IMG/VR virus record: IMGVR_UViG_3300045988_034366
DNA: 64,000 nt
Origin: a virus
Strand: one strand, 5' to 3'
The notes beneath the pieces were generated by a model. The model was not told the origin of the DNA. It ran no database searches and saw only the letters and a program-made list of their open reading frames with translations. Positions 36,521-47,521 of the stretch are shown in pieces (the first letter of the stretch is position 1; every line of letters begins with the position of its first letter). A program made the position numbers and the translations under genes.

Positions 36521-37453
36521 ATGAAGAAGAATATTGGTTTTAATTTCATGGCCTTTAGTAAAGGGGCAGTGTCTACTGAAGGCAATACAGTGAAGAGATA
36601 TGTAGGTGTAGCACCTGTATTTGTACTTGGTGTAAATCCTAATAAGGAGGAACTTGAAAAGCTGTATAATACCCAGCTTGAGAATACTCCTGAATATCTC
36701 AGTGAAGTTGAAGTAGGTGAGGACAAGCACAAAGTTCCTAATGTGAGAATTGACTTCATTGTCAAGACTGATGCTGAGAAGTGTGGTGGTATTGAGTTTA
36801 CTACCAAGGTGGCTTTCTTCATTAGGAAAGAACCTAGAATCAACAGAGATGGTAGTAAGGTACAGGTAATTGACAAGTATGGTAGGACTGCTTGGGTAAC
36901 TAAAGAGCAGTACAAGAACAAGGAGATTCCTGTATATTCTAGTGGCCCTGCAAACATTGACAAGGACTATAGAGCTTGTTTCCATGGAGAGGAAGAGCTT
37001 ACCAACTTCATTAAGGCATATCTTAACATTCCTAATGTGATGAAGTATGTCAATGAGAAGTGGATTATGGTTGATAATCCTGATGATTGTGAAGCAAGAC
37101 TTGAGCATGTTGAGGATTACTTCAAAGGTGACTTCAGTGAACTTAGGGAAATTATTGCTCTTCAGCCTACCAATAAGGTTAAAGTGCTATTTGGTGTGAG
37201 AACCACTGATGACAATAAGCAGTATCAAGCTGTCTATACTCAGATGTTCTTGAAGAATAATATCACTGACTATAGCAGACTTGACAAGGACTTGCAGGAT
37301 AGAAAAGCTGCTGGTGCTTATTCTACCACTGAGTTCATTGTAGGAGACTTGAAGGAGTATAATGTTGAAGCTACTGACCTCAGCAACTCTGGCTCAAGTG
37401 ATATGCCTTTCCCTAAGGCAGAGGAGTCATCTCCTTGGGACTTTGGAAAATAA
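36521..37453 (+). CDS. single-stranded-DNA-binding protein candidate (310 aa)
   Basis: Lies between the recombination ATPase and the primase. The C-terminal acidic tip ...SGSSDMPFP... recalls the SSB D-I-P-F tail. Minus-strand ORFs 36469-36963 and 36512-37108 are shadows. Confidence 0.4.
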   Translation: MKKNIGFNFMAFSKGAVSTEGNTVKRYVGVAPVFVLGVNPNKEELEKLYNTQLENTPEYLSEVEVGEDKHKVPNVRIDFIVKTDAEKCGGIEFTTKVAFFIRKEPRINRDGSKVQVIDKYGRTAWVTKEQYKNKEIPVYSSGPANIDKDYRACFHGEEELTNFIKAYLNIPNVMKYVNEKWIMVDNPDDCEARLEHVEDYFKGDFSELREIIALQPTNKVKVLFGVRTTDDNKQYQAVYTQMFLKNNITDYSRLDKDLQDRKAAGAYSTTEFIVGDLKEYNVEATDLSNSGSSDMPFPKAEESSPWDFGK

Positions 37454-37482
37454 GTAGTAAACTCTCTCTCAAAAAAAAAAGT

Positions 37483-38526
37483 ATGTCTGTCAGTAAAGGT
37501 GAATCTTCTGTTACTTTAAGTGACATTCTAGAGAAGACAACAGAAGCAAATATTCTGTCATTCTATCTAGGAGTCACTGAAATTCCTTGTATTATACATA
37601 GTCCTCTTAGGAAAGATAACAGGCCATCATTTGGCCTGTACTCCTCTAATGGAAAAAGGATATATTTTGTAGACTTTGCAACCAAGGATAGAGGAGGTGT
37701 ATTTGACCTCCTTTGTCAGATGTGGGGATGCAACTACAGAGAAGTCCTAACAAGGATAAGCAAGGATATGCCAAAGCTCTGCTCCATAGGAACACCTGAT
37801 GTCCATAAACATATTCCATGTGCTGTGAGAAGTACCATTGAATGCAAAAAGAGTACTGACTTACAATGCAAAGTCAGAGATTGGACATCTTATGATGTTG
37901 AATATTGGAAATCCTATGGAATAAGTCTTGATTGGCTGAAGTATGCAGAAGTTTATCCCATATCACATAAAATCATCATTAAAGATGGTCATAGATATGT
38001 GTTTGGGGCTGACAAATATGCTTATGCTTATGTAGAACACAAGGAAGGTAAAGTTACTCTAAAGATATATCAACCTTTTAATAAGAATGGTTATAAATGG
38101 AGTAACAAGCATGACAACTCTGTGATAAGCCTGTGGACTAAAGTACCTGAATATGGGGAGCAGATTTGCATTTGTTCTTCACTGAAAGATGCTTTATGCC
38201 TATGGGCTAATACAGGGATACCATCTCTTGCTATCCAAGGTGAGGGATATAGGATAAGTGATACTGCAATTAGTGAACTGAAAAGAAGATACAAACAAAT
38301 CTTCATTTGCTTGGATAATGATGAGCCAGGATTAAAAGATGCTCAGAAGTTAGCTGAGGAAACAGGGTTTACTAATGTAGTATTGCCACCCTTTGATGGA
38401 GGAAAAGATATTTCTGACCTTTTTAAGGCTAAAGGAAAAGAAGAGTTCCTCAAAATTATTAAGCCTTTATTTAAAATCAAAGTAATAGATGATGATTGGG
38501 ATGATTTACCCTTCAAAGTCTATTAA
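37483..38526 (+). CDS. DnaG-type primase (zinc-finger-like N-terminus + Toprim)
   Basis: IHSPLRKDNRPSFGLY is CHC2-finger-like. The Toprim domain has ICSSLKDAL (conserved acidic position unclear) and FICLDNDEPG (DxD). The ATG at 37483 follows an A10 tract. Confidence 0.7.
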   Translation: MSVSKGESSVTLSDILEKTTEANILSFYLGVTEIPCIIHSPLRKDNRPSFGLYSSNGKRIYFVDFATKDRGGVFDLLCQMWGCNYREVLTRISKDMPKLCSIGTPDVHKHIPCAVRSTIECKKSTDLQCKVRDWTSYDVEYWKSYGISLDWLKYAEVYPISHKIIIKDGHRYVFGADKYAYAYVEHKEGKVTLKIYQPFNKNGYKWSNKHDNSVISLWTKVPEYGEQICICSSLKDALCLWANTGIPSLAIQGEGYRISDTAISELKRRYKQIFICLDNDEPGLKDAQKLAEETGFTNVVLPPFDGGKDISDLFKAKGKEEFLKIIKPLFKIKVIDDDWDDLPFKVY

Positions 38527-38556: not shown

Positions 38557-39264
38557 ATGGAAACTCGTAAAATCACTATCGTTTCAACTAAGAGTCAATC
38601 TAAGAAAGTTATCATGTCTTCTGCTACTACTCTTGCAGAACTGAAGTCTGACCTGAGACAGAATGGCATTGACTATGAAGGTATGTCCTTCTTTGAAGGT
38701 ACTTCTAAAGTAGAGTTAAAGAATGATGCTTCTGTTCTTCCTCATGATGTACCTTGGAAAGGCACTGTTACCAATGAATTGGTATTCATGCTCACCAATA
38801 CTAACAAGAAAATTAGGTCTGGTGCAATGAGCAGAATGGAGGCATATGCTGAAATCAAGAGAATGGGTCTTCAAGATGCTTGCCTTAAGAAGTTTGGGAA
38901 GAACTTCACTATGTGTAAGACTGCTGACCTTATTGCATTGGTACAGAGTAATAGTGCTGCAAAGCCTGCTCCTGCTCCTAAAGCTGAGGCTAAGAAGGAG
39001 GAGACACCTGTAAACACTCCTGTAGCACCTGCAAGTAATGGCGGTGAATGTGTTGATACTGCATCAAGAGCTGCTATCAGTAAGTTGGTGGAAATCCTTG
39101 AGGACAATGGCACAATTGAGGATTATGAGAAAGAGGAAGTGCTTGGTATTCTTGGGGGTGAAGTAGCTGTAACTACTGCAACCTCCGAGGAGTATAAGCC
39201 TAAGTCAGCTTCTCCTTACTCTGATGATGAGATTGATGATATGTTTAATGACATGGACATCTAA
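38557..39264 (+). CDS. beta-grasp-like N-domain + HeH/SAP-like motif + acidic tail protein (235 aa)
   Basis: Residues 5-80 alternate short beta strands and one helix (ITIVST, KKVIMSS, TLAELKSDLRQNG, MSFFEG, VELKND, ELVFMLT). SRMEAYAEIKRMGL...KTADLIALV is SAP/HeH-like. There is an internal LGILGG. Confidence 0.35.
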   Translation: METRKITIVSTKSQSKKVIMSSATTLAELKSDLRQNGIDYEGMSFFEGTSKVELKNDASVLPHDVPWKGTVTNELVFMLTNTNKKIRSGAMSRMEAYAEIKRMGLQDACLKKFGKNFTMCKTADLIALVQSNSAAKPAPAPKAEAKKEETPVNTPVAPASNGGECVDTASRAAISKLVEILEDNGTIEDYEKEEVLGILGGEVAVTTATSEEYKPKSASPYSDDEIDDMFNDMDI

Positions 39265-39286
39265 GGGCAAAAAAAAATATGTAATG

Positions 39287-39325
39287 GTAGGCAGGAGATA
39301 TTATATCTCCTCCTACTTTTTTTTT
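39287..39325 (+). terminator. intrinsic terminator
   Basis: 13-bp stem GTAGG(C)AGGAGATA/TATCTCCTCCTAC, followed by T9. Confidence 0.8.
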
Positions 39326-39327
39326 AC

Positions 39328-40638
39328 ATGAGTATGAGTGAAGAAAATATTAAGCGATTTAATGAAAGTGTACATACACTCTATAATGCTATAATGGATA
39401 AACCTCTTCAAGTGCTTGGCATATTCAATGACTTCTTTGGAGCAGACAAAGTTGATATGCAGGGTGTTTGGAATGAAGATAGACTAAGGTCTTGGCTTGA
39501 AGTAGAGCCTATTACTTCATATCTCTATAGGGGTAACTCAAATGTAACATCTAGTGAATGGGATACATATCATACTAAGAGTATAATGGATTTGTCTCAA
39601 AGTGAATTTGAATGGGCACTCTCATCATTATCTCATGAAGATACAATAGAAAGTATTGTTAGTAGTAAGTTCGACAATATGTTTATCCTTGTACATTTTC
39701 CGCATGTAAGGATTACTAATGAGCATGATAGATATGTAGATATTAACCATCTGTGGGCTAAGATTAAAATAACATCTGAGGGCACTATGAATGGTAATTT
39801 TACTCTCAATAGGTCTGAATACCAAGCTATTCACTTTATTAGTAACTATATGCACAGTCATGTAAGTAGCATTCCTAAAGATGACCTTACTAGGTTTATG
39901 AGTCCCTGCACTGGAGATGGGCCTATCAATAGTACTATATCATCTTTATATAGAGAATTTGATAGTGACCTTTGGCAGTTATTCTGTCTTGAACTCAGTA
40001 AGTATGTTACTGTGGAATCTATTTCAGGAAGACCTTATCATTATCTTGAAAAAATAGGTACTAGTAATATGGATACAGGAGTATCTTCCTTTATTGCATT
40101 TAATAATCCTACTAGATACTGGGATTCTTCTAATGCAGCACTAGACAGGTTAAGAAAGTTTGTCAAGTACTTTGTTCAAGGAAATCATTTGAAGTTTAAC
40201 TATGTGAATGGCTCTTATTCCATAGGAATGTCTTTCATAGAGTACATAGTGCTAATTAGCAATGAATTTATTAAATGGTACAATAGGCAATTCAATGATA
40301 AGAAAATGACTACTACTCTTGAAAGCCTAGAAAGAACCCATGTAGTTAGAGAATGTATTATTAGCAATGGTAAAATCTACTATGATAGCAGCAGAAACAA
40401 TATCAATACCCTTTCTTCTTATATAGGAAAGAAAGTTTGCACTTTCAAAGGAGTGAAGATTACTCTTAGCATATCAGACATATCTGAGGTAAATGCTGAG
40501 AACAAGAGTATCATACTTGACCCTCAGACTGCATTATTTATATTAAATCAAATCCTCAAAGTATTAAATTATAGATATGGAAGGAAAACAGCTAACCATA
40601 CAGAGTACCAAGTTGGTACAGAAGTTAGGTACATATAA
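39328..40638 (+). CDS. orphan protein upstream of the JAB/E1 pair (436 aa), weak UBC/E2-like signature
   Basis: FILVHFPHVRITNE...YMHSHVSSIPKDDLTRFMSPCTGDGPI loosely recalls the E2 beta-meander plus HPN...C. Overlaps the JAB gene by 62 nt. Confidence 0.3.
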   Translation: MSMSEENIKRFNESVHTLYNAIMDKPLQVLGIFNDFFGADKVDMQGVWNEDRLRSWLEVEPITSYLYRGNSNVTSSEWDTYHTKSIMDLSQSEFEWALSSLSHEDTIESIVSSKFDNMFILVHFPHVRITNEHDRYVDINHLWAKIKITSEGTMNGNFTLNRSEYQAIHFISNYMHSHVSSIPKDDLTRFMSPCTGDGPINSTISSLYREFDSDLWQLFCLELSKYVTVESISGRPYHYLEKIGTSNMDTGVSSFIAFNNPTRYWDSSNAALDRLRKFVKYFVQGNHLKFNYVNGSYSIGMSFIEYIVLISNEFIKWYNRQFNDKKMTTTLESLERTHVVRECIISNGKIYYDSSRNNINTLSSYIGKKVCTFKGVKITLSISDISEVNAENKSIILDPQTALFILNQILKVLNYRYGRKTANHTEYQVGTEVRYI

Positions 40639-41788
40639 TTATAAGCTGGTTATACCAGCTGAAGTTGAGAGAAAAATAAGATTTGCCTGCCAAAGAGTAT
40701 GGAATACAGAGTGGTCAGGCACATTATTTTTTACACATGAAGGTTCATTTGAGAACAATGACCTTGTAATAAGATGTGTGGATATTTACATTATGGATAT
40801 TGGTACTCAAGCCTATACAGAGTTTGATATGAATCCTGATGTAATAGCATATATGTGTGAGCATTCAGAGCTACTTGATTGTCAAATGGGCCTTATCCAT
40901 TCTCATAATAATATGTCTACTTTCTTTAGTGGCACTGATACTGCTACCTTGAAGGAAGAGGGCAGAGATAGGAACAACTTTGTATCTCTCATTGTGAACA
41001 ATGAAGGAAGCTATACAGCTGCTATCACTAGAAGAGTGAAAAGTAAGAGTGTGAAAGAGTCTGTATCCTATGAGTTCTTTGGAGATGGTGAAAAGCATGA
41101 TACCAAGGAGTATGTGTCTGAAGAGAATGAGATTGAGTGGTTCTATCTCAACATAGTCAAGGAAGGAGATACCTTTTCCTTTCAAGACATGGATGTTAGG
41201 TTTGAGGAAATCAAGAAGAGGAAAGCTGAGAAAGCTAAAGAGGCTGAAATGGCTAGGAAACAAACTTCTCAGGTTACTTCATATAGACCTTCAACTGTTA
41301 TAAATTCTTATGGCACAAAGGCAGGGTCTGCCAGCACTATGGCTAGTAAGAAGGCTATTGGTCAAACATCACTCTTTGATGGCATAGATGATTGGGATTC
41401 TGATAACTTTGATATACCATATGGTACAGCTAAATTTGATAGGAACACCATCAGACAGCTTACTTTGCAGTTGATTACTGGTAGTATTATCATACCTAAT
41501 GATAGTAAGATTGACATCAAGAAGTGGGCAGCCTCTATGCCTGCAATGTATCAGAAGAGATTTGGCAAAGGAGAAGAAGGCATGAAGCTCTTTGAGTTGT
41601 GGGCAGATACATATACTGAGTTCCTCTGTTGGTATGCAACAGATAGAAAACTTGAAGCTCAAGGTATGGATGACACTGAGATATGTGCTATATGTGCCCA
41701 TGATATGATTGAAGAATTAACTAAACTCCCTGAGAATGAATATATCAAGGGGTATATTGATGCACTTCAGAAATACTTAATATTATGA
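40577..41788 (+). CDS. JAB/MPN-domain metalloprotease with long C-terminal extension (403 aa)
   Basis: Exact JAMM motif H-x-H-x7-S-x2-D in GLIHSHNNMSTFFSGTD, with an upstream Glu (NTEWSG). Confidence 0.75.
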   Translation: MEGKQLTIQSTKLVQKLGTYNYKLVIPAEVERKIRFACQRVWNTEWSGTLFFTHEGSFENNDLVIRCVDIYIMDIGTQAYTEFDMNPDVIAYMCEHSELLDCQMGLIHSHNNMSTFFSGTDTATLKEEGRDRNNFVSLIVNNEGSYTAAITRRVKSKSVKESVSYEFFGDGEKHDTKEYVSEENEIEWFYLNIVKEGDTFSFQDMDVRFEEIKKRKAEKAKEAEMARKQTSQVTSYRPSTVINSYGTKAGSASTMASKKAIGQTSLFDGIDDWDSDNFDIPYGTAKFDRNTIRQLTLQLITGSIIIPNDSKIDIKKWAASMPAMYQKRFGKGEEGMKLFELWADTYTEFLCWYATDRKLEAQGMDDTEICAICAHDMIEELTKLPENEYIKGYIDALQKYLIL

Positions 41789-42735
41789 ATGGAGAAACAA
41801 TAATTCAAGCAATAACTCAAGAAAACATTCCTGCAACTATGCAGGAGGCTTATAATTCCCTTATAGAAAATCTCAATGAAAATACTATACCTGAGTCAGA
41901 CAGTGCTATAGAAGATGATGGTGACAGCATTAGCTTTGACCTTTCAGAGGAAGAACAGGCTATCCTTGACCAAGCTGTAGAAGATGCACATCAAGAGATA
42001 CCTACAAACTCTGCAACTTTGCTTGTAGATGAAGCTACTAGTAGATTCAGTTCTGCTATATGGTATGAGAAGATACGGGAAAAGACTATTGTTCTTGCAG
42101 GTGTAGGAGGTATTGGCAGTTATGTGGGATTCCTGCTTGCAAGAATGAAACCTGCCTCTTTGTTCATTTATGACAATGATATAGTGGAAGCTGTCAATAT
42201 GTCAGGCCAGCTATATAGTCGAAATGATATTGGAGTTACTAAGGTAGCTGCCCTTGCAAACATGGTCAAGGATTATGCTGACTATGGTAGTGTGTTTGCC
42301 ATAGCTGAAAGATTCACTCCTGAATGTGAACCTACAGATATTATGATTTGTGGGTTTGACAATATGGAAGCTAGAAGAGTGTTCTTCACAAAGTGGGTTG
42401 AGCACGTTCACAGTAAACCTGAGGAGGAAAGAGCTAATTGTCTATTCATTGATGGAAGACTTGCAGCTGAAGAATTTCAAGTTCTCTGTATCAAGGGAGA
42501 TGATTTGTTCAACATTGATAGGTATCAGAAGGAATACTTGTTCACTGATGCAGAAGCTGATGAGACTATTTGTTCTTATAAACAGACTACTTTCTGTGCA
42601 AATATGATTGCATCTTATATGGTTAATTTGTTTGTAAATTTCTGTGCTAATCAATGTGAGCCTCTCATTGACAGAGACCTGCCATTCCTTACTACATATA
42701 ATGCAGAAACGATGTATCTTAAAACCGAAGCATAA
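41785..42735 (+). CDS. E1-like ThiF/MoeB/UBA-family adenylyltransferase (316 aa)
   Basis: Rossmann GxGxxG in VLAGVGGIGSYVGFLLAR, then YDNDIVEAVNMSGQLY and GFDNMEARR blocks. Its start overlaps the JAB gene stop by 4 nt (41785-41788). Confidence 0.75.
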   Translation: MNGETIIQAITQENIPATMQEAYNSLIENLNENTIPESDSAIEDDGDSISFDLSEEEQAILDQAVEDAHQEIPTNSATLLVDEATSRFSSAIWYEKIREKTIVLAGVGGIGSYVGFLLARMKPASLFIYDNDIVEAVNMSGQLYSRNDIGVTKVAALANMVKDYADYGSVFAIAERFTPECEPTDIMICGFDNMEARRVFFTKWVEHVHSKPEEERANCLFIDGRLAAEEFQVLCIKGDDLFNIDRYQKEYLFTDAEADETICSYKQTTFCANMIASYMVNLFVNFCANQCEPLIDRDLPFLTTYNAETMYLKTEA

Positions 42736-43520
42736 TGGAATTTTCAGCTAGATTTATACGTGAAATGACTAGGCCATTTTACGATGCCCAGCCTCTCCGC
42801 TTTAATTCAAGGGATACAAGTAATCCTATTACTCTTGATAGTAATAATATGTTCAGTAAAAGTCTTGTTGTAGATACTACAGGAGACAATATTGAAATAC
42901 CCTCAATTGCTAGGACATATTACGAAAACATTATCCGTGATAATTTGATTCATAGTAATGTAAGGGTAGAGAGAATTATACTGCCTCTTTATACAAGTGG
43001 TAATAGTCAAAGTAGAAGAACTTTTGATGGTATCATGAGAGAGTTCTTCTGCAAACCCCCCCTTAACCAAAGAGTGCTAAAGGTTACAACTAATAAAGGT
43101 GATACTTATTATGGTGGATATGGCCTTATATTAGATGAGGAGTTTAATCCTCTCCTAATGTGTGGACTAAAGGCCAGAAAGGTGATATCAGAACATGGTG
43201 ATGATGCAGAAGTTGTACATATACAATACTATAGAACTGTCTGTCATGTTAGTCCTATAGTATTTACAGAGCCTAACAAGTTAATTAATAAGGGCATCAT
43301 AAAGAAGCTGATTCCTCTATATACCACTATGGACACAACTTTTCCAAATGTCAGTGTTGGCACTTCAAATAGCCCTGATAGTAGGAAAGTAGAAGTGATT
43401 ATAGATGATTTCAGCAAGTTCTTCATTTCCCCTATTGTACCTACTCCCAATAAGTGCAGTAATGATGCACTTAATAAGTGTCTGAATGATAACATAGAAG
43501 ACATTCTGTATCTAATATGA
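42735..43520 (+). CDS. orphan protein translationally coupled to the E1-like gene (261 aa)
   Basis: Its start overlaps the E1 stop at nt 42735, and its stop overlaps the ung start. No motif recognised. Confidence 0.6.
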   Translation: MEFSARFIREMTRPFYDAQPLRFNSRDTSNPITLDSNNMFSKSLVVDTTGDNIEIPSIARTYYENIIRDNLIHSNVRVERIILPLYTSGNSQSRRTFDGIMREFFCKPPLNQRVLKVTTNKGDTYYGGYGLILDEEFNPLLMCGLKARKVISEHGDDAEVVHIQYYRTVCHVSPIVFTEPNKLINKGIIKKLIPLYTTMDTTFPNVSVGTSNSPDSRKVEVIIDDFSKFFISPIVPTPNKCSNDALNKCLNDNIEDILYLI

Positions 43521-44194
43521 CAGTAGAAGAATATTTTGGGGATTGGGTTCATGTCTTTGACATGAAGGAACTCCACAAGGTGATGTATAAGTTAAGAGTG
43601 GAATATCAGAGAAAGAAGATATGTCCTGCTCAACCTGATGTATTTAGAGCCTTTGAGTTATGTCCCCTTAAAGACTTGAAAGTAGTTATGTTAGGACAAG
43701 ACCCCTATCCCCAAAAGGGAGTTGCTACTGGCATACTATTTGGAAATAGGGCTGATGTGCAAGAGAAAAATTTATCTCCATCTCTACAAATCGTTAAAGA
43801 GGCAGCTATAAATTTTGAGATTCCAAAGAATAATTGTATCTTTGACCCCACTTTGGAGAGTTGGGCAAAACAGGGGATACTAATGATAAATTCTGCTCTC
43901 ACAGTAGAAATGAATAAGGTTGGTTCTCATGCGATGATATGGAGACCATTCACAATTGCTTTATTAAAACACTTATCAGAGTGTGAGACTGGCATTATTT
44001 ATGTTCTATTTGGGAGACAGGCTCAAACATTTAAGCCCTACATTAACAAACAATTCAATAACATTCTTGAAATTGAACATCCAGCATACTATGCAAGGCT
44101 CAATAAGAGGATGCCATCTGAATTGTTTGCTACTATAAGTAATATGTGTAAAGACAAATATGGAGTACCAATTAAATGGTACCAAGAGTGTTAA
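43517..44194 (+). CDS. ung: uracil-DNA glycosylase (family 1)
   Basis: VVMLGQDPYPQKG water-activating motif and the C-terminal EIEHPAYY (HPSP-like) block. Confidence 0.8.
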   Translation: MTVEEYFGDWVHVFDMKELHKVMYKLRVEYQRKKICPAQPDVFRAFELCPLKDLKVVMLGQDPYPQKGVATGILFGNRADVQEKNLSPSLQIVKEAAINFEIPKNNCIFDPTLESWAKQGILMINSALTVEMNKVGSHAMIWRPFTIALLKHLSECETGIIYVLFGRQAQTFKPYINKQFNNILEIEHPAYYARLNKRMPSELFATISNMCKDKYGVPIKWYQEC

Positions 44195-45292: not shown

Positions 45293-45458
45293 TAAATTGC
45301 CTGTATTGGAATATGACCCTAATCCTATTATTTTCAAGGATAATGTGGATGCTACTATAAGAGAGGTAAAACAAAGACTTGGGGTTTTACAGACTCTTAA
45401 GGCAGAAATAGATTACCGATTAACTTTAACTCATGCAGATGATGAAGAGTTTACGTGA
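45252..45458 (+). CDS. hypothetical protein (68 aa)
   Basis: Small ORF overlapping both neighbours. Confidence 0.45.
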   Translation: MQQNVIHKLIQQANKLPVLEYDPNPIIFKDNVDATIREVKQRLGVLQTLKAEIDYRLTLTHADDEEFT

Positions 45459-46170
45459 TATTTCATGGCAAGTAAGTGAAGAGGGGTATAGGGCAGACCC
45501 TGCACTTAGCTACTCTACTCTTGCAAGATATGAAAGAGAGGGGTTTAATAACTTGGATAAGCTATTTGACAGGATAGAAACCCCCTCCCTTACCTTTGGC
45601 TCTGCTGTAGATTCTATCATTACAGGTGGGCAAGAGGAGTTTGATGAAAGGTTCATGGTAGCTGAGTTTCCCTCAATGCCTGACTCTATTGTGAAGATAA
45701 TAAAATCTTTGTATAAACAATATGCTGGAACATATAGGAGCCTGCTTAATATATCTGATAGTTCAATTATTAGAGAAACTGAAGACCAAAACTATCAAAT
45801 GAATTGGAAACCTGAAACAAGGGCTAAGGTTATCAAAGAAAAAGGTACTGACTACTATAATTTATTGTTTGTAGCAGGTGATAGGTGTATCATAGATACT
45901 CAGACTTATCAGGATGTAGTTAATGCAGTTAGAGTATTGAAGGAAAGTAGCTCTACCAAGTTATACTTTGCAGATGACAATCCCTTTGAGCCTGATATTG
46001 AAAGATTATATCAGTTGAAGTTTAAGGGAGAGTTTGATGGTATAACCTATAGAAATATGGCTGACTTAATTATAGTCAATCATAAAGAGAAATGGGTAAA
46101 GCCAGTAGATTTGAAAACAAGTTCCCATACAGAGTGGGACTTTTATAAGTCCTTTGTAGATTGGAGATAT
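45433..46170 (+). CDS. PD-(D/E)XK recombination exonuclease, exon 1 of 2
   Basis: ADLIIVN...VKPVDLKTS nuclease core. The reading frame is interrupted after ...FVDWRY by the intron. The track ORF runs 3 codons into the intron. Confidence 0.65.
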
Positions 46171-46195
46171 GAAAAATAAGTAATTTATTTATTAA

Positions 46196-46227
46196 TTTGG
46201 AGATACGAGAAATTTTACTTATCTTTG
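46196..46227 (+). promoter_or_regulatory. Bacteroides-type promoter inside the intron (TTTG-N20-TAtcTTTGcat)
   Basis: -33 at 46196-46199 and -7 at 46220-46227. The LAGLIDADG ATG lies 24 nt downstream. Confidence 0.65.
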
Positions 46228-46251
46228 CATTGAATTATAAATCAATGTATT

Positions 46252-46899
46252 ATGAGAAAGTATAATTTTAATGAACATTATTTTGATATTATAGATTGTC
46301 AAGAAAAAGCTTATTGGTTAGGATTCTTTGCAGCGGATGGATATAATCATGTAGGTAAAGGTTGTATAGAGTTTAGATTACATAAACAAGATAAAGAAAT
46401 ATTAGAAAAATTCAAATCTTGTATAGAAGCTAATAACCCCATTGGATTATATAAACAAACTTATTGTAATTTGACTTTATATTCCCAACATCTATGTAAT
46501 AAGTTGTCTGAATATGGGTTAAGTCAAGCAAAGACTTACACATTGCAAATTCCTCAATTAGATTATAAATTAATGAGACATTTTATAAGAGGGTATTATG
46601 ATGGTGATGGCTGTTTTTCTGTAACAAAAAGAAAAGATAGAACTGAAAATAGTCTAATTTACCAATTTAATATTACTGGAATGGAAAATCCTCTTAGAAA
46701 AATGCAAGAGCATTTAATAAATAATGTAGGAGTTGTTGATAATGGGCTAAAGCATAGAAAGTCTACTATTGCTGTCACTATTCACTATAGTGGAAAGAAT
46801 GTATGTAAAAGAATACTTGATTATCTATATCAGGATGCTACTATATATCTTCAAAGAAAATATAATAAATATAAAGAATATTGTATCTCGGCAGAGTAA
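46252..46899 (+). CDS. LAGLIDADG homing endonuclease (double-motif)
   Basis: Two LAGLIDADG motifs: YWLGFFAADGYN and FIRGYYDGDGCF. Confidence 0.85.
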   Translation: MRKYNFNEHYFDIIDCQEKAYWLGFFAADGYNHVGKGCIEFRLHKQDKEILEKFKSCIEANNPIGLYKQTYCNLTLYSQHLCNKLSEYGLSQAKTYTLQIPQLDYKLMRHFIRGYYDGDGCFSVTKRKDRTENSLIYQFNITGMENPLRKMQEHLINNVGVVDNGLKHRKSTIAVTIHYSGKNVCKRILDYLYQDATIYLQRKYNKYKEYCISAE

Positions 46900-47206
46900 T
46901 CTGCAATAATAAAAAACCTCGTGAATTCAGGGAACATCCTAAGACTTGAAATTTAATATATAGGTCTAAAATTGTTTGAAATATAACAGCCTATAATATA
47001 TAAATGGGTTATTCTAGGACAATCCTGAGCCAAGCCTTAATAATAAGGAAGGTGCAACGACTATCCCTTTATGGGAGTACACTCAAGTGAGTGGAAGTGC
47101 GAGGCTCCTAAGAAATTAGGATGATGATATAGTCTCATCTATATGGTAACATATAGCAGTTCATAAGAGAACGCAGATAAATTAACGACTTATCTGGAAG
47201 ATAATG

Positions 47207-47521
47207 GATATTCAAGCCAGACTATATTGGTCTATTATAAGACAAAATATGGATAAGGATGAGTACTTCAAAGACTTCAAGCTACTTGACTATGATTTCA
47301 TTGTAGTCAATAAGAGGACTTTAACTCCTCTTGTATGGAACTGTCCCTTTACTCAAGCACAAGGTACATTGAGATTTGGTAATAATTCTCAAATTGAAAT
47401 GAGAAGTCCCTTTGAGATAGGAAAGGAGCTTAATTCCTATCTCACTTCAAGACCAAAAGTGCCTATGGGAATTAATGAGACTGGTACTAATAATTTAAAA
47501 GATTGGTTAAATAAACTATGA
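47207..47521 (+). CDS. PD-(D/E)XK recombination exonuclease, exon 2 of 2
   Basis: Begins DIQARLYWSIIRQ (the QxxxY motif of RecB-type nucleases), in frame with exon 1. Confidence 0.65.
   Translation, partial: DIQARLYWSIIRQNMDKDEYFKDFKLLDYDFIVVNKRTLTPLVWNCPFTQAQGTLRFGNNSQIEMRSPFEIGKELNSYLTSRPKVPMGINETGTNNLKDWLNKL

Follow-up and report, generated by a model that had tools for sequence, protein, structure and literature searches.

Introduction

Prokaryotic systems that combine a ubiquitin-like protein (Ubl), an E1-type activating enzyme and a JAB-type peptidase are understood either as sulfur-transfer pathways or as host defenses against phages, the latter including Cap2/3 of the cyclic oligonucleotide-based antiphage signaling system (CBASS), Bil and Bub. 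The SAMP and TtuB modifiers are cellular, have Gly-Gly ends and double as sulfur carriers. UBA5 is a minimal E1 whose cysteine lies inside the adenylation domain, and the precursor of its modifier, UFM1, ends in x-Gly followed by a short extension (VG-SC). In the BilABCD system, the genes are arranged in the order Ubl, E2, deubiquitinase and E1, and BilC pre-processes BilA by removing a C-terminal extension to expose the Gly (PMC10557695). In the tail assembly of phages lambda and T1, TAPI contains a Ubl with a conserved C-terminal Gly and an extra domain, and TAPK (JAB plus NlpC/P60) is predicted to release the Ubl (PMC1779556). Here, we describe a block of genes in a 64,000-nucleotide stretch of viral DNA (IMG/VR record IMGVR_UViG_3300045988_034366; hereafter, the window). 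The block encodes a putative Ubl precursor (p235), a Cys/His protein (p436), a JAMM peptidase (JAB) and a minimal E1-like enzyme (E1), in this order. We lean toward regarding these four genes as a phage-encoded cassette for the processing and activation of a Ubl.

The window belongs to a Steigviridae-like crAss phage. Its closest GenBank record is bajarodcaudo virus 1, which has 77% nucleotide identity across half of the region and an identical gene order. In crAss001 (Steigviridae), the equivalent block is Gp79–Gp75, where Gp77 is labeled 'metalloprotease domain' and Gp76 'thiamine biosynthesis protein ThiF' in GenBank. Labels for the single domains ('metalloprotease', 'ThiF' and 'E1 enzyme family protein') can already be found in GenBank; the system-level reading is absent there. 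A literature search of incomplete coverage found no paper that ties crAss phages or Crassvirales to ThiF, E1 or ubiquitin, nor one that describes phage-encoded E1-like/Ubl systems.

Co-conservation of the four genes

A preliminary description of this DNA, made from the sequence alone, had proposed a unit of five genes built around an E1-like/JAB pair, and had suggested a survey of its conservation among related phages. The pair proved to be real, and the survey showed that the genes for the Ubl, p436, JAB and E1 are kept together across related phages. The fifth product, p261, is lineage-specific, and the core is one of four genes rather than five.

Among 50,697 GenBank phage records, p235, p436 and JAB were each found in 74 records, with an identical breakdown by organism and host. 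These records comprise the Steigviridae/Asinivirinae crAss-like phages of Bacteroides, the Fipvunavirus phages of Flavobacterium, Dulem virus 41 and bajarodcaudo virus. The E1 was found in 82 records, which are the same groups and 8 others. The gene order Ubl-p436-JAB-E1 was seen in all 80 IMG/VR relatives that were retrieved with the E1. An environmental set of 75 loci was retrieved with a distant p436 profile (21–35% identity). All four genes were detected in 57 of these 75 loci by both of the Ubl models used and in 5 more by one of them, and their order was always kept; the loci without the full set are mostly truncated contigs. This order was found in more than 200 loci (74 GenBank phages and approximately 140 metagenomic loci). 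In FpV4, the gene for uracil-DNA glycosylase (UDG) is located on the opposite side of the block and the cassette is intact; thus, the cassette is independent of UDG.

The distribution of p261 is clearly different. This protein could be detected in no more than 40 of the 74 records, all in the Bacteroides crAss-like subset. No homologue was found in the 75 environmental loci, and neither Pfam nor the PDB provided a match. Because p261 is confined to one lineage, the conserved module was judged to consist of four genes. Homology of p261 to the gene in the same position of FpV4 or Dulem virus was also considered, and hhalign gave no link.

Two further observations were made in the course of the survey. 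One is that the JAB or E1 gene is broken by insertions of 0.5–1.3 kb in nine relatives (L105, L112, L119, L120, L126, L141, L154, L160 and L164). Such insertions are also present in the Flavobacterium phages Fpv1, FpV21 and Fpv20, with an annotated endonuclease in Fpv1; introns, inteins or homing-endonuclease genes inside the enzyme cores may account for them. The other is that the Xanthomonas jumbo phage PhiXhv-15 (L085, 3763–8518) carries a ThiF homologue with 29% identity to the window E1, near a 141-aa open reading frame (ORF) ending in KASGG and a Cys-rich protein of 892 aa. The 892-aa protein as a homologue of p436 and the 141-aa ORF as a homologue of the crAss Ubl were both rejected (hhalign, 0.1% in each case), and these genes may represent an independent phage pairing of a Ubl with an E1.

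The putative Ubl precursor

A ubiquitin-sized N-terminal domain had been noted earlier in the 235-aa protein. Structure prediction with AlphaFold 2 (AF2) and comparison with Foldseek identified this domain as a beta-grasp. In the AF2 model, which was built with a 35-sequence alignment, residues 1–83 form a confident beta-grasp of b-b-a-b-b-b topology, with a predicted local distance difference test (pLDDT) score of 86–96, and the tail residues 84–89 are disordered (pLDDT < 50). The top 50 Foldseek matches of this domain in the PDB are essentially all beta-grasps of the Ubl, DIX, UBX or RBD type (E ~3e-3; probability 1.0; template modeling score normalized to the target, 0.6–0.72). The structures matched include the Ubl of Mpe1, the DIX domains of Dvl and Axin, SUMO1, TINCR, UBX, ubiquitin and ISG15.

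The most conserved feature of the whole p235 is the K-x-[KR]-S-G motif that closes the beta-grasp. In 150 representatives of clusters at 50% identity, Gly89 is found in all 150 and Ser88 in 149, while Lys84, Lys85 and Ile86 are each found in 134–143. The terminal dipeptide across the family is S-G or A-G, and it is G-G in one lineage. The family of Ubl fusions comprises 1,923 clusters at 50% identity (E ≤ 1e-3).

Three lines of evidence point to Gly89 as the processing point. One is provided by split genes. In L005 (4177–5478), an intact HNH homing-endonuclease gene is inserted two codons past the Ser-Gly of the p235 homologue. This splits the gene into a 91-aa Ubl ORF, which ends in KKIRSG-IC, and another ORF that encodes the C-terminal half. 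The same split, accompanied by a decayed remnant of the endonuclease, was found in L024 (4563–5492) and L025. Another is that, in the 75 distant environmental loci, the residues C-terminal to the conserved K-x-K-[S/A]-G show no relationship from one lineage to another and vary in number from 1 to more than 200. The extension after the Gly is a single residue in L106, L123, L137, L144, L150 and L107. The last is that at least 10 of the 75 loci encode a stand-alone Ubl of approximately 76–82 aa, in which the stop codon occurs 1–3 residues past the Gly (SG-K, SG-F, SG-E, AG-K, AG-I, SG-VNV, SG-TSI and AG-KQN). In the ten loci with such a Ubl, p436, JAB and E1 are all retained. From these comparisons of sequences, p235 appears to be a Ubl precursor: it bears the signature of a processed Ubl, and its cleavage is predicted. 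The pattern is like that of the precursors of UFM1, NEDD8, SUMO, BilA and QbsE.

An internal LGILGG sequence had also attracted attention in the preliminary description. It is indeed present, at residues 196–201; as a C-terminus of the Ubl it fails for want of conservation, since relatives have EG, KG, SG or NG in place of its GG. The invariant Ser88-Gly89 that closes the beta-grasp is the candidate for processing instead.

The C-terminal moiety of p235 was predicted by AF2 to consist of three short helices (aa 93–133), a disordered linker of Ala, Pro and Lys, a helical hairpin (aa 168–199) and a short C-terminal helix; to the eye, the first three helices are HeH/SAP-like. The acidic tail bears an S..EID.MF pattern. 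No Pfam or PDB match was found for this moiety. In 4 of 147 representatives of the Ubl-fusion clusters, the corresponding moiety contains the C-terminal domain of ribosomal protein L7/L12 (PF00542, E down to 1e-16); these relatives include P0426, P0471 and P0489, and the window protein is without that domain. A relationship of the moiety to the N-terminal domain of ribosomal L12 was examined with hhalign, and the result was negative.

The peptidase and the activating enzyme

The exact JAMM motif with an upstream Glu, described earlier in the 403-aa protein, is present as Glu45 and His108-x-His110-x7-Ser118-x2-Asp121. All five residues are kept without exception in 16 diverse relatives, and they are found in 56–63 of 64 environmental homologues, the remainder being gaps from split genes. 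The protein matches Pfam Prok-JAB with E = 3.4e-5 and 24.1 bits, which is 0.9 bit under the 25-bit cut-off. The family profile matches solved structures in the PDB in the range of 8e-5 to 1e-3, including CSN5 (8e-5), archaeal JAMM1 (8e-4) and Rpn11; these nearest solved relatives are Ubl isopeptidases. Its family and motif mark the 403-aa protein as a JAMM/MPN+ peptidase that is intact.

The 316-aa protein matches Pfam ThiF with E = 2.6e-17 and 63.2 bits, well above the cut-off of 28.1. The ThiF/E1 blocks reported before (GVGGIGS, YDNDIVEAVNMSGQ and FDNMEARR) are present and conserved. The residues conserved in 54–59 of 59 distant homologues are Arg87, G106xG108G, Asp130/132, Asn138, Gln142, Lys153, Asp192-Asn193, Arg197, Asp223-Gly-Arg225 and Cys263. 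Cys263, in the segment ICSYKQTT, is an invariant Cys inside the adenylation domain. When the profile of the E1 was compared with the PDB, UBA5 was the best match (1.6e-14), followed by PaaA, MccB, UBA6/UBA1, TcdA, ThiF, MoeB and Cap2 (8e-9 for the Cap2 structures). These profile alignments end at the DNxxxR motif, and the C-terminal half gave no matches to solved E1s. Among the PADLOC models, the Cap2-type E1-E2 models were matched at 1e-11, the match being limited to the adenylation domain; the match to BilD was at 1.1e-4. The 316-aa protein is, by family, a minimal ThiF/E1 adenylation domain. Assignment of the locus to a PRTRC cassette was rejected with the NCBIfam models: the scores were 31 bits for PRTRC_ThiF (cut-off, 144.75) and 12.4 bits for PRTRC_A (cut-off, 101.8), and the other components were not found.

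The protein in the second position

The AF2 model of p436 (60 sequences) has a pLDDT of 81.4. It starts with a helical region, which is followed by a four-strand antiparallel beta-meander (aa 119–166). The middle part is a loop carrying His176-Ser-His178 and Cys194-x-Gly196, followed by two helices. The last part comprises a Glu230-Ser231..Gly234.Pro236 motif and a C-terminal alpha/beta domain. His178, Cys194, Gly196, Glu230, Ser231, Gly234 and Pro236 are invariant in 67–68 of 68 distant homologues. The distribution of p436 is narrow. A search of 185,579 species genomes provided only 3 matches, all of them contigs of crAss type in metagenome-assembled genomes, and a Foldseek search of BFVD provided uncharacterized phage proteins only.

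The order of the elements (meander, His motif, Cys and helices) recalls the UBC fold. The spacing between His178 and Cys194 is 16 residues. In E2 enzymes, the HPN-like motif and the catalytic Cys are separated by approximately 8–10 residues. From its sequence and model, p436 is best described as a phage-restricted Cys/His protein that occupies the E2 position and lies outside the E2 family. Its position, its co-occurrence with the other three genes and its invariant His, Cys and Glu residues make it a candidate transfer enzyme.

Proposed pathway and expression

The role of the cassette is probably conjugation. We tentatively propose that Steigviridae-type crAss-like phages, some of which are abundant in the human gut, and their aquatic relatives run a Ubl-conjugation pathway of their own during genome replication, in which the modifier would be released from a fusion precursor by a JAMM peptidase, activated by a UBA5-like E1 and transferred by the structurally novel, non-UBC protein p436 to phage or host proteins. 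The cassette would be transcribed together with the replication genes. In crAss001, the replication and nucleotide-metabolism genes are of the middle class, being turned on at 10–30 min after infection (PMC8375218). The 235-aa product would serve as the precursor, with its beta-grasp, its tail ending in Ser88-Gly89 and a dispensable, lineage-variable extension. The JAMM peptidase would cut after Gly89 to expose the carboxylate, and may also undo conjugates, as in the Bil and eukaryotic systems. The minimal ThiF/UBA5-like E1 would then adenylate Gly89 with ATP, possibly passing the Ubl to Cys263.

Two routes can be envisaged for the subsequent transfer. In one, the Ubl would go straight to a lysine, as in the E2-independent SAMP system of archaea. 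In the other, which appears the more likely of the two routes, the transfer would proceed via p436 with Cys194, His178 and Glu230, and p436 would be an analogue of an E2 rather than a homologue. Protein conjugation via p436 is a possibility that we entertain with some doubt.

The strong terminator reported previously, which separates the gene for the Ubl from those for the enzymes, was verified as a hairpin followed by a T9 run. Its folding z-score is −5.2 relative to shuffled sequences. A hairpin with a T-run is also located directly 3′ of the Ubl gene in crAss001, DAC15, FpV4 and other distant relatives (including L082, L083 and L087), and the stems are divergent. This suggests that a selected attenuator or terminator separates the substrate gene from the enzyme genes. 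Such an element may allow the substrate to be made in excess over the enzymes.

Points against conjugation and alternative explanations

A number of results weigh against the conjugation pathway proposed above. Some of them concern p436. A Foldseek comparison with the PDB, which includes BilB, Cap2 and hundreds of E2s, gave nothing below E = 1. Neither Prok-E2 nor UQ_con nor any other relevant Pfam family was found in 60 members, there was no match to BilB of PADLOC and no relevant PDB sequence match by profile, and the hhalign probability against UbcH5B was 1.2%. Membership of p436 in the UBC, E2, RWD or BilB families was rejected on all of these comparisons. The preliminary description had proposed a loose UBC-like signature for this protein; the HSH...PC motif that formed part of it is real and conserved, whereas the E2 identity was not borne out by the fold and profile searches.

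Others concern the E1. Its ATP motif is N138-M-S-G141-Q142, with Gly at position 141 in 55 of 59 homologues. This Gly takes the place of the Arg that the canonical E1s, MoeB and UBA5 have in N-x-x-R-Q/L; the counterpart in UBA5 is NMNRL in the HMMER alignment. The core of approximately 230 aa is without a CYS domain, an E2-binding ubiquitin-fold domain (UFD) and the CxxC zinc motifs, so that the thioester chemistry of the E1 is uncertain. The placement of Cys263 at the position of the UBA5, ThiF and MoeB cysteines is by our reading only, with no computed alignment. The remaining points are that the Ubl tail ends in SG, not GG, that JAB matches neither the BilC nor the Cap3 model of PADLOC, and that BilA, BilB and BilC of PADLOC had no match to the phage proteins at E ≤ 0.1, BilD being the only Bil component matched.

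Some of these properties fit a sulfur carrier, which we regard as an unlikely alternative. The Ubl would then be of the ThiS/MoaD type, trimmed by JAB, adenylated by the E1 and thiocarboxylated, as in CysO/Mec+ and QbsE/QbsD, for the thio-modification of nucleotides, tRNA or DNA, with p436 as the sulfur user. The E1 is of MoeB/ThiF size and without the UFD, its best NCBIfam matches are ThiF models (1.8e-17), though far below their cut-offs, the cassette is located among nucleotide-metabolism genes, p436 has an invariant Cys, and triads of JAB, Ubl and E1 in sulfur assimilation have been described (PMC1779556). Nevertheless, no NCBIfam model attains its cut-off, and the best solved relative of the E1 is the conjugation E1 UBA5, not ThiF or MoeB. 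Moreover, the annotation of the replication and early half of crAss001 contains no rhodanese, cysteine desulfurase, PP-loop thiolase or radical-SAM partner. The tail of the phage Ubl also ends in Ser-Gly or Ala-Gly, whereas the described sulfur carriers end, to our knowledge, in Gly-Gly.

The strict co-occurrence of the four genes bears on a second alternative, namely counter-defense. Here, JAB and the E1 would strip the cGAS conjugates made by Cap2, would free phage proteins of Bil-type Ubl marks or would titrate host components, and the phage Ubl would be a decoy or a folding/solubility domain of a replication accessory protein. A deconjugase alone would do for this purpose, yet all four genes are kept together. 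The invariant Gly, the variable extension and the stand-alone Ubls point to the phage's own Ubl as the substrate, and the absence of a Cap3 or BilC match, mentioned above, also argues against this explanation. The host systems concerned do exist and target phage virions (PMC10557695, PMC10097602), the E1 does match the Cap2-type models of PADLOC, and the cassette is phage-restricted; even so, we consider counter-defense improbable. A third explanation involves neither conjugation nor sulfur transfer. The E1 would adenylate a substrate other than the Ubl, such as a peptide C-terminus (like MccB and PaaA) or the carboxylate of a nucleic acid or cofactor (like TcdA), and its neighbors would be independent syntenic replication accessory proteins. 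This is consistent with the presence of these three enzymes among the best solved relatives (5.7e-13 to 2e-11) and with the lack of an assignable function for p436 and p261, but has little chance. Mere synteny fails to explain the identical phyletic patterns across very distant phages (p436 identity, 21–35%) with changing flanks; moreover, the triad that defines Ubl systems is found here, namely a beta-grasp whose terminal Gly is invariant, next to an intact JAMM peptidase and an E1 (PMC1779556).

Gene layout and neighboring features

The positions of the genes and other features in the window are summarized in Table 1. The coordinates of the five ORFs and the chained overlaps between successive genes (62, 4, 1 and 4 nt), both taken over from the preliminary description, were verified. 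The long overlap in which the p436 gene ends and the JAB gene starts is kept, being 62 nt in the window and 62–125 nt in relatives, and is also present in crAss001, FpV4 and Dulem virus. The frame of the JAB gene is +1 relative to p436.

Table 1 Features of the Ubl cassette and its surroundings in the window
Feature	Position	Strand	Size or description	Basis or remark
Toprim primase	37435–38526			Upstream flank of the block
p235 gene	38557–39264	+	235 aa; putative Ubl precursor
Ubl beta-grasp domain of p235	38557–38823	+	aa 1–89; core aa 1–83 and flexible tail KKIRSG (84–89)	AF2, Foldseek
Predicted processing site of p235	38821–38826	+	Gly89-Ala90	Cleavage inferred from comparison across phages
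C-terminal moiety of p235	38824–39264	+		AF2 secondary structure, family alignment
Intrinsic-terminator-like hairpin	39287–39325	+	14 bp and T9	Between Ubl gene and enzyme genes; folding
p436 gene	39328–40638	+	436 aa; phage-restricted Cys/His protein	AF2, homologue alignment
p436/JAB overlap	40577–40638		62 nt
JAB gene	40577–41788	+	403 aa; JAMM/MPN+ metallopeptidase (aa ~25–150) and helical C-terminal domain (~200 aa)	Motif, profiles
Glu45 of JAB	40709–40711		JAMM motif
His108 to Asp121 of JAB	40898–40939		JAMM motif
E1 gene	41785–42735	+	316 aa; minimal ThiF/E1-type adenylation enzyme, core aa 85–316 and variable acidic N-terminal extension	Pfam, profiles
Cys263 of E1	42571–42573
p261 gene	42735–43520	+	261 aa; fast-evolving, lineage-specific, overlap-coupled to E1 and UDG	Outside conserved core
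UDG	43517–44194			Downstream flank of the block
Exonuclease-like ORF, first part	45433–46179			Resembles PD-(D/E)XK exonuclease together with second part
LAGLIDADG-type ORF	46252–46899
Group I intron	46863–47156		RF00028	Rfam, 89.6 bits
Exonuclease-like ORF, second part	47204–47521			See first part

Two features downstream of the cassette were also found, one in the window and one in relatives. One is a group I intron, which is located downstream of a LAGLIDADG-type ORF. The intron and this ORF lie between two ORFs (the whole stretch being 45433–47521) that together resemble a PD-(D/E)XK exonuclease, which is encoded by one gene (Gp70) in crAss001. The other is a gene for a retropepsin-like aspartyl protease, which lies farther along the replication block, at a downstream distance of a few kilobases, in crAss001 (Gp66; L091, 20493–21008) and Dulem virus 41 (L084, 11134–11679). 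In eukaryotic Ddi1, a retropepsin-like protease is coupled to ubiquitin recognition.

Implications and comparison with known systems

In a major group of gut phages (crAss001, DAC15 and their relatives) and in many phages from the environment, the logic of the Ubl, JAB and E1 takes the form of a conserved cassette that is restricted to phages and located in the replication block. Should the cassette carry out conjugation, ubiquitin-like modification would be put to offensive use by phages or would serve their own replication. The cassette would then be the first Ubl-conjugation system of a virus of bacteria, with p436 representing a new class of Ubl-transfer enzyme. The modifier would be made as a fusion precursor like eukaryotic ubiquitin, in some lineages with a moiety containing the ribosomal L12 domain. 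Questions would then arise on the targets, on the interplay with the Ubl-based immunity of the host and on the origin of the ubiquitin-precursor architecture. The prediction is directly testable because crAss001 and its host can be cultured. The Ser-Gly tail follows a Lys or Arg, so that digestion with trypsin would result in modified lysines bearing a diagnostic Ser-Gly remnant (+144.05 Da).

Among the known systems, BilABCD (type I and type II/CEHH-6C), a bacterial anti-phage operon for ubiquitination-like modification, has the closest architecture: its four-gene logic and gene order are the same as those of the phage Ubl-p436-JAB-E1. The differences are in location and in the individual proteins. 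BilABCD is found in a bacterial defense island with CapH/CapP, whereas the phage cassette is located inside the replication block of a lytic phage. The E1 of BilABCD has a CYS domain, while the phage E1 is a minimal single domain; the second protein of BilABCD is an E2, while p436 is not detectably so. Unlike in BilABCD, the extension of the phage Ubl can be a multi-domain moiety of 146 aa.

For the individual enzymes and the minimal triad, the closest relatives are found elsewhere. UBA5 of the UFM1/UBA5/UfSP pathway is the closest enzyme relative of the phage E1, and the end of the UFM1 precursor resembles the ends of the stand-alone phage Ubls (SG-K, SG-F and SG-VNV). In the UFM1 pathway, however, the processing is performed by a cysteine protease and the E2 is UFC1, whereas the phages have a JAMM metallopeptidase and no UFC1-like E2; UBA5 also has the NxxR Arg, which the phage E1 is without. 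The archaeal SAMP/UbaA/JAMM1 system and the TtuB/TtuC system of Thermus share with the phages a minimal MoeB-like E1, a beta-grasp modifier, a JAMM isopeptidase and the absence of a recognizable E2/E3, SAMP/UbaA/JAMM1 being the closest minimal triad. The phage cassette differs from them in that it always has the extra p436.

The type II CBASS proteins Cap2/Cap3 share the ThiF-type adenylation domain and the JAB peptidase with the phage cassette, which, unlike them, comes without a fused E2, a CD-NTase substrate and an effector. The lambda TAPI/TAPK pair is the only earlier phage pairing of a Ubl with a JAB that we found. It belongs to a tail-assembly module and has no E1 and no adenylation step, whereas the phage cassette described here belongs to the replication block and includes an E1.

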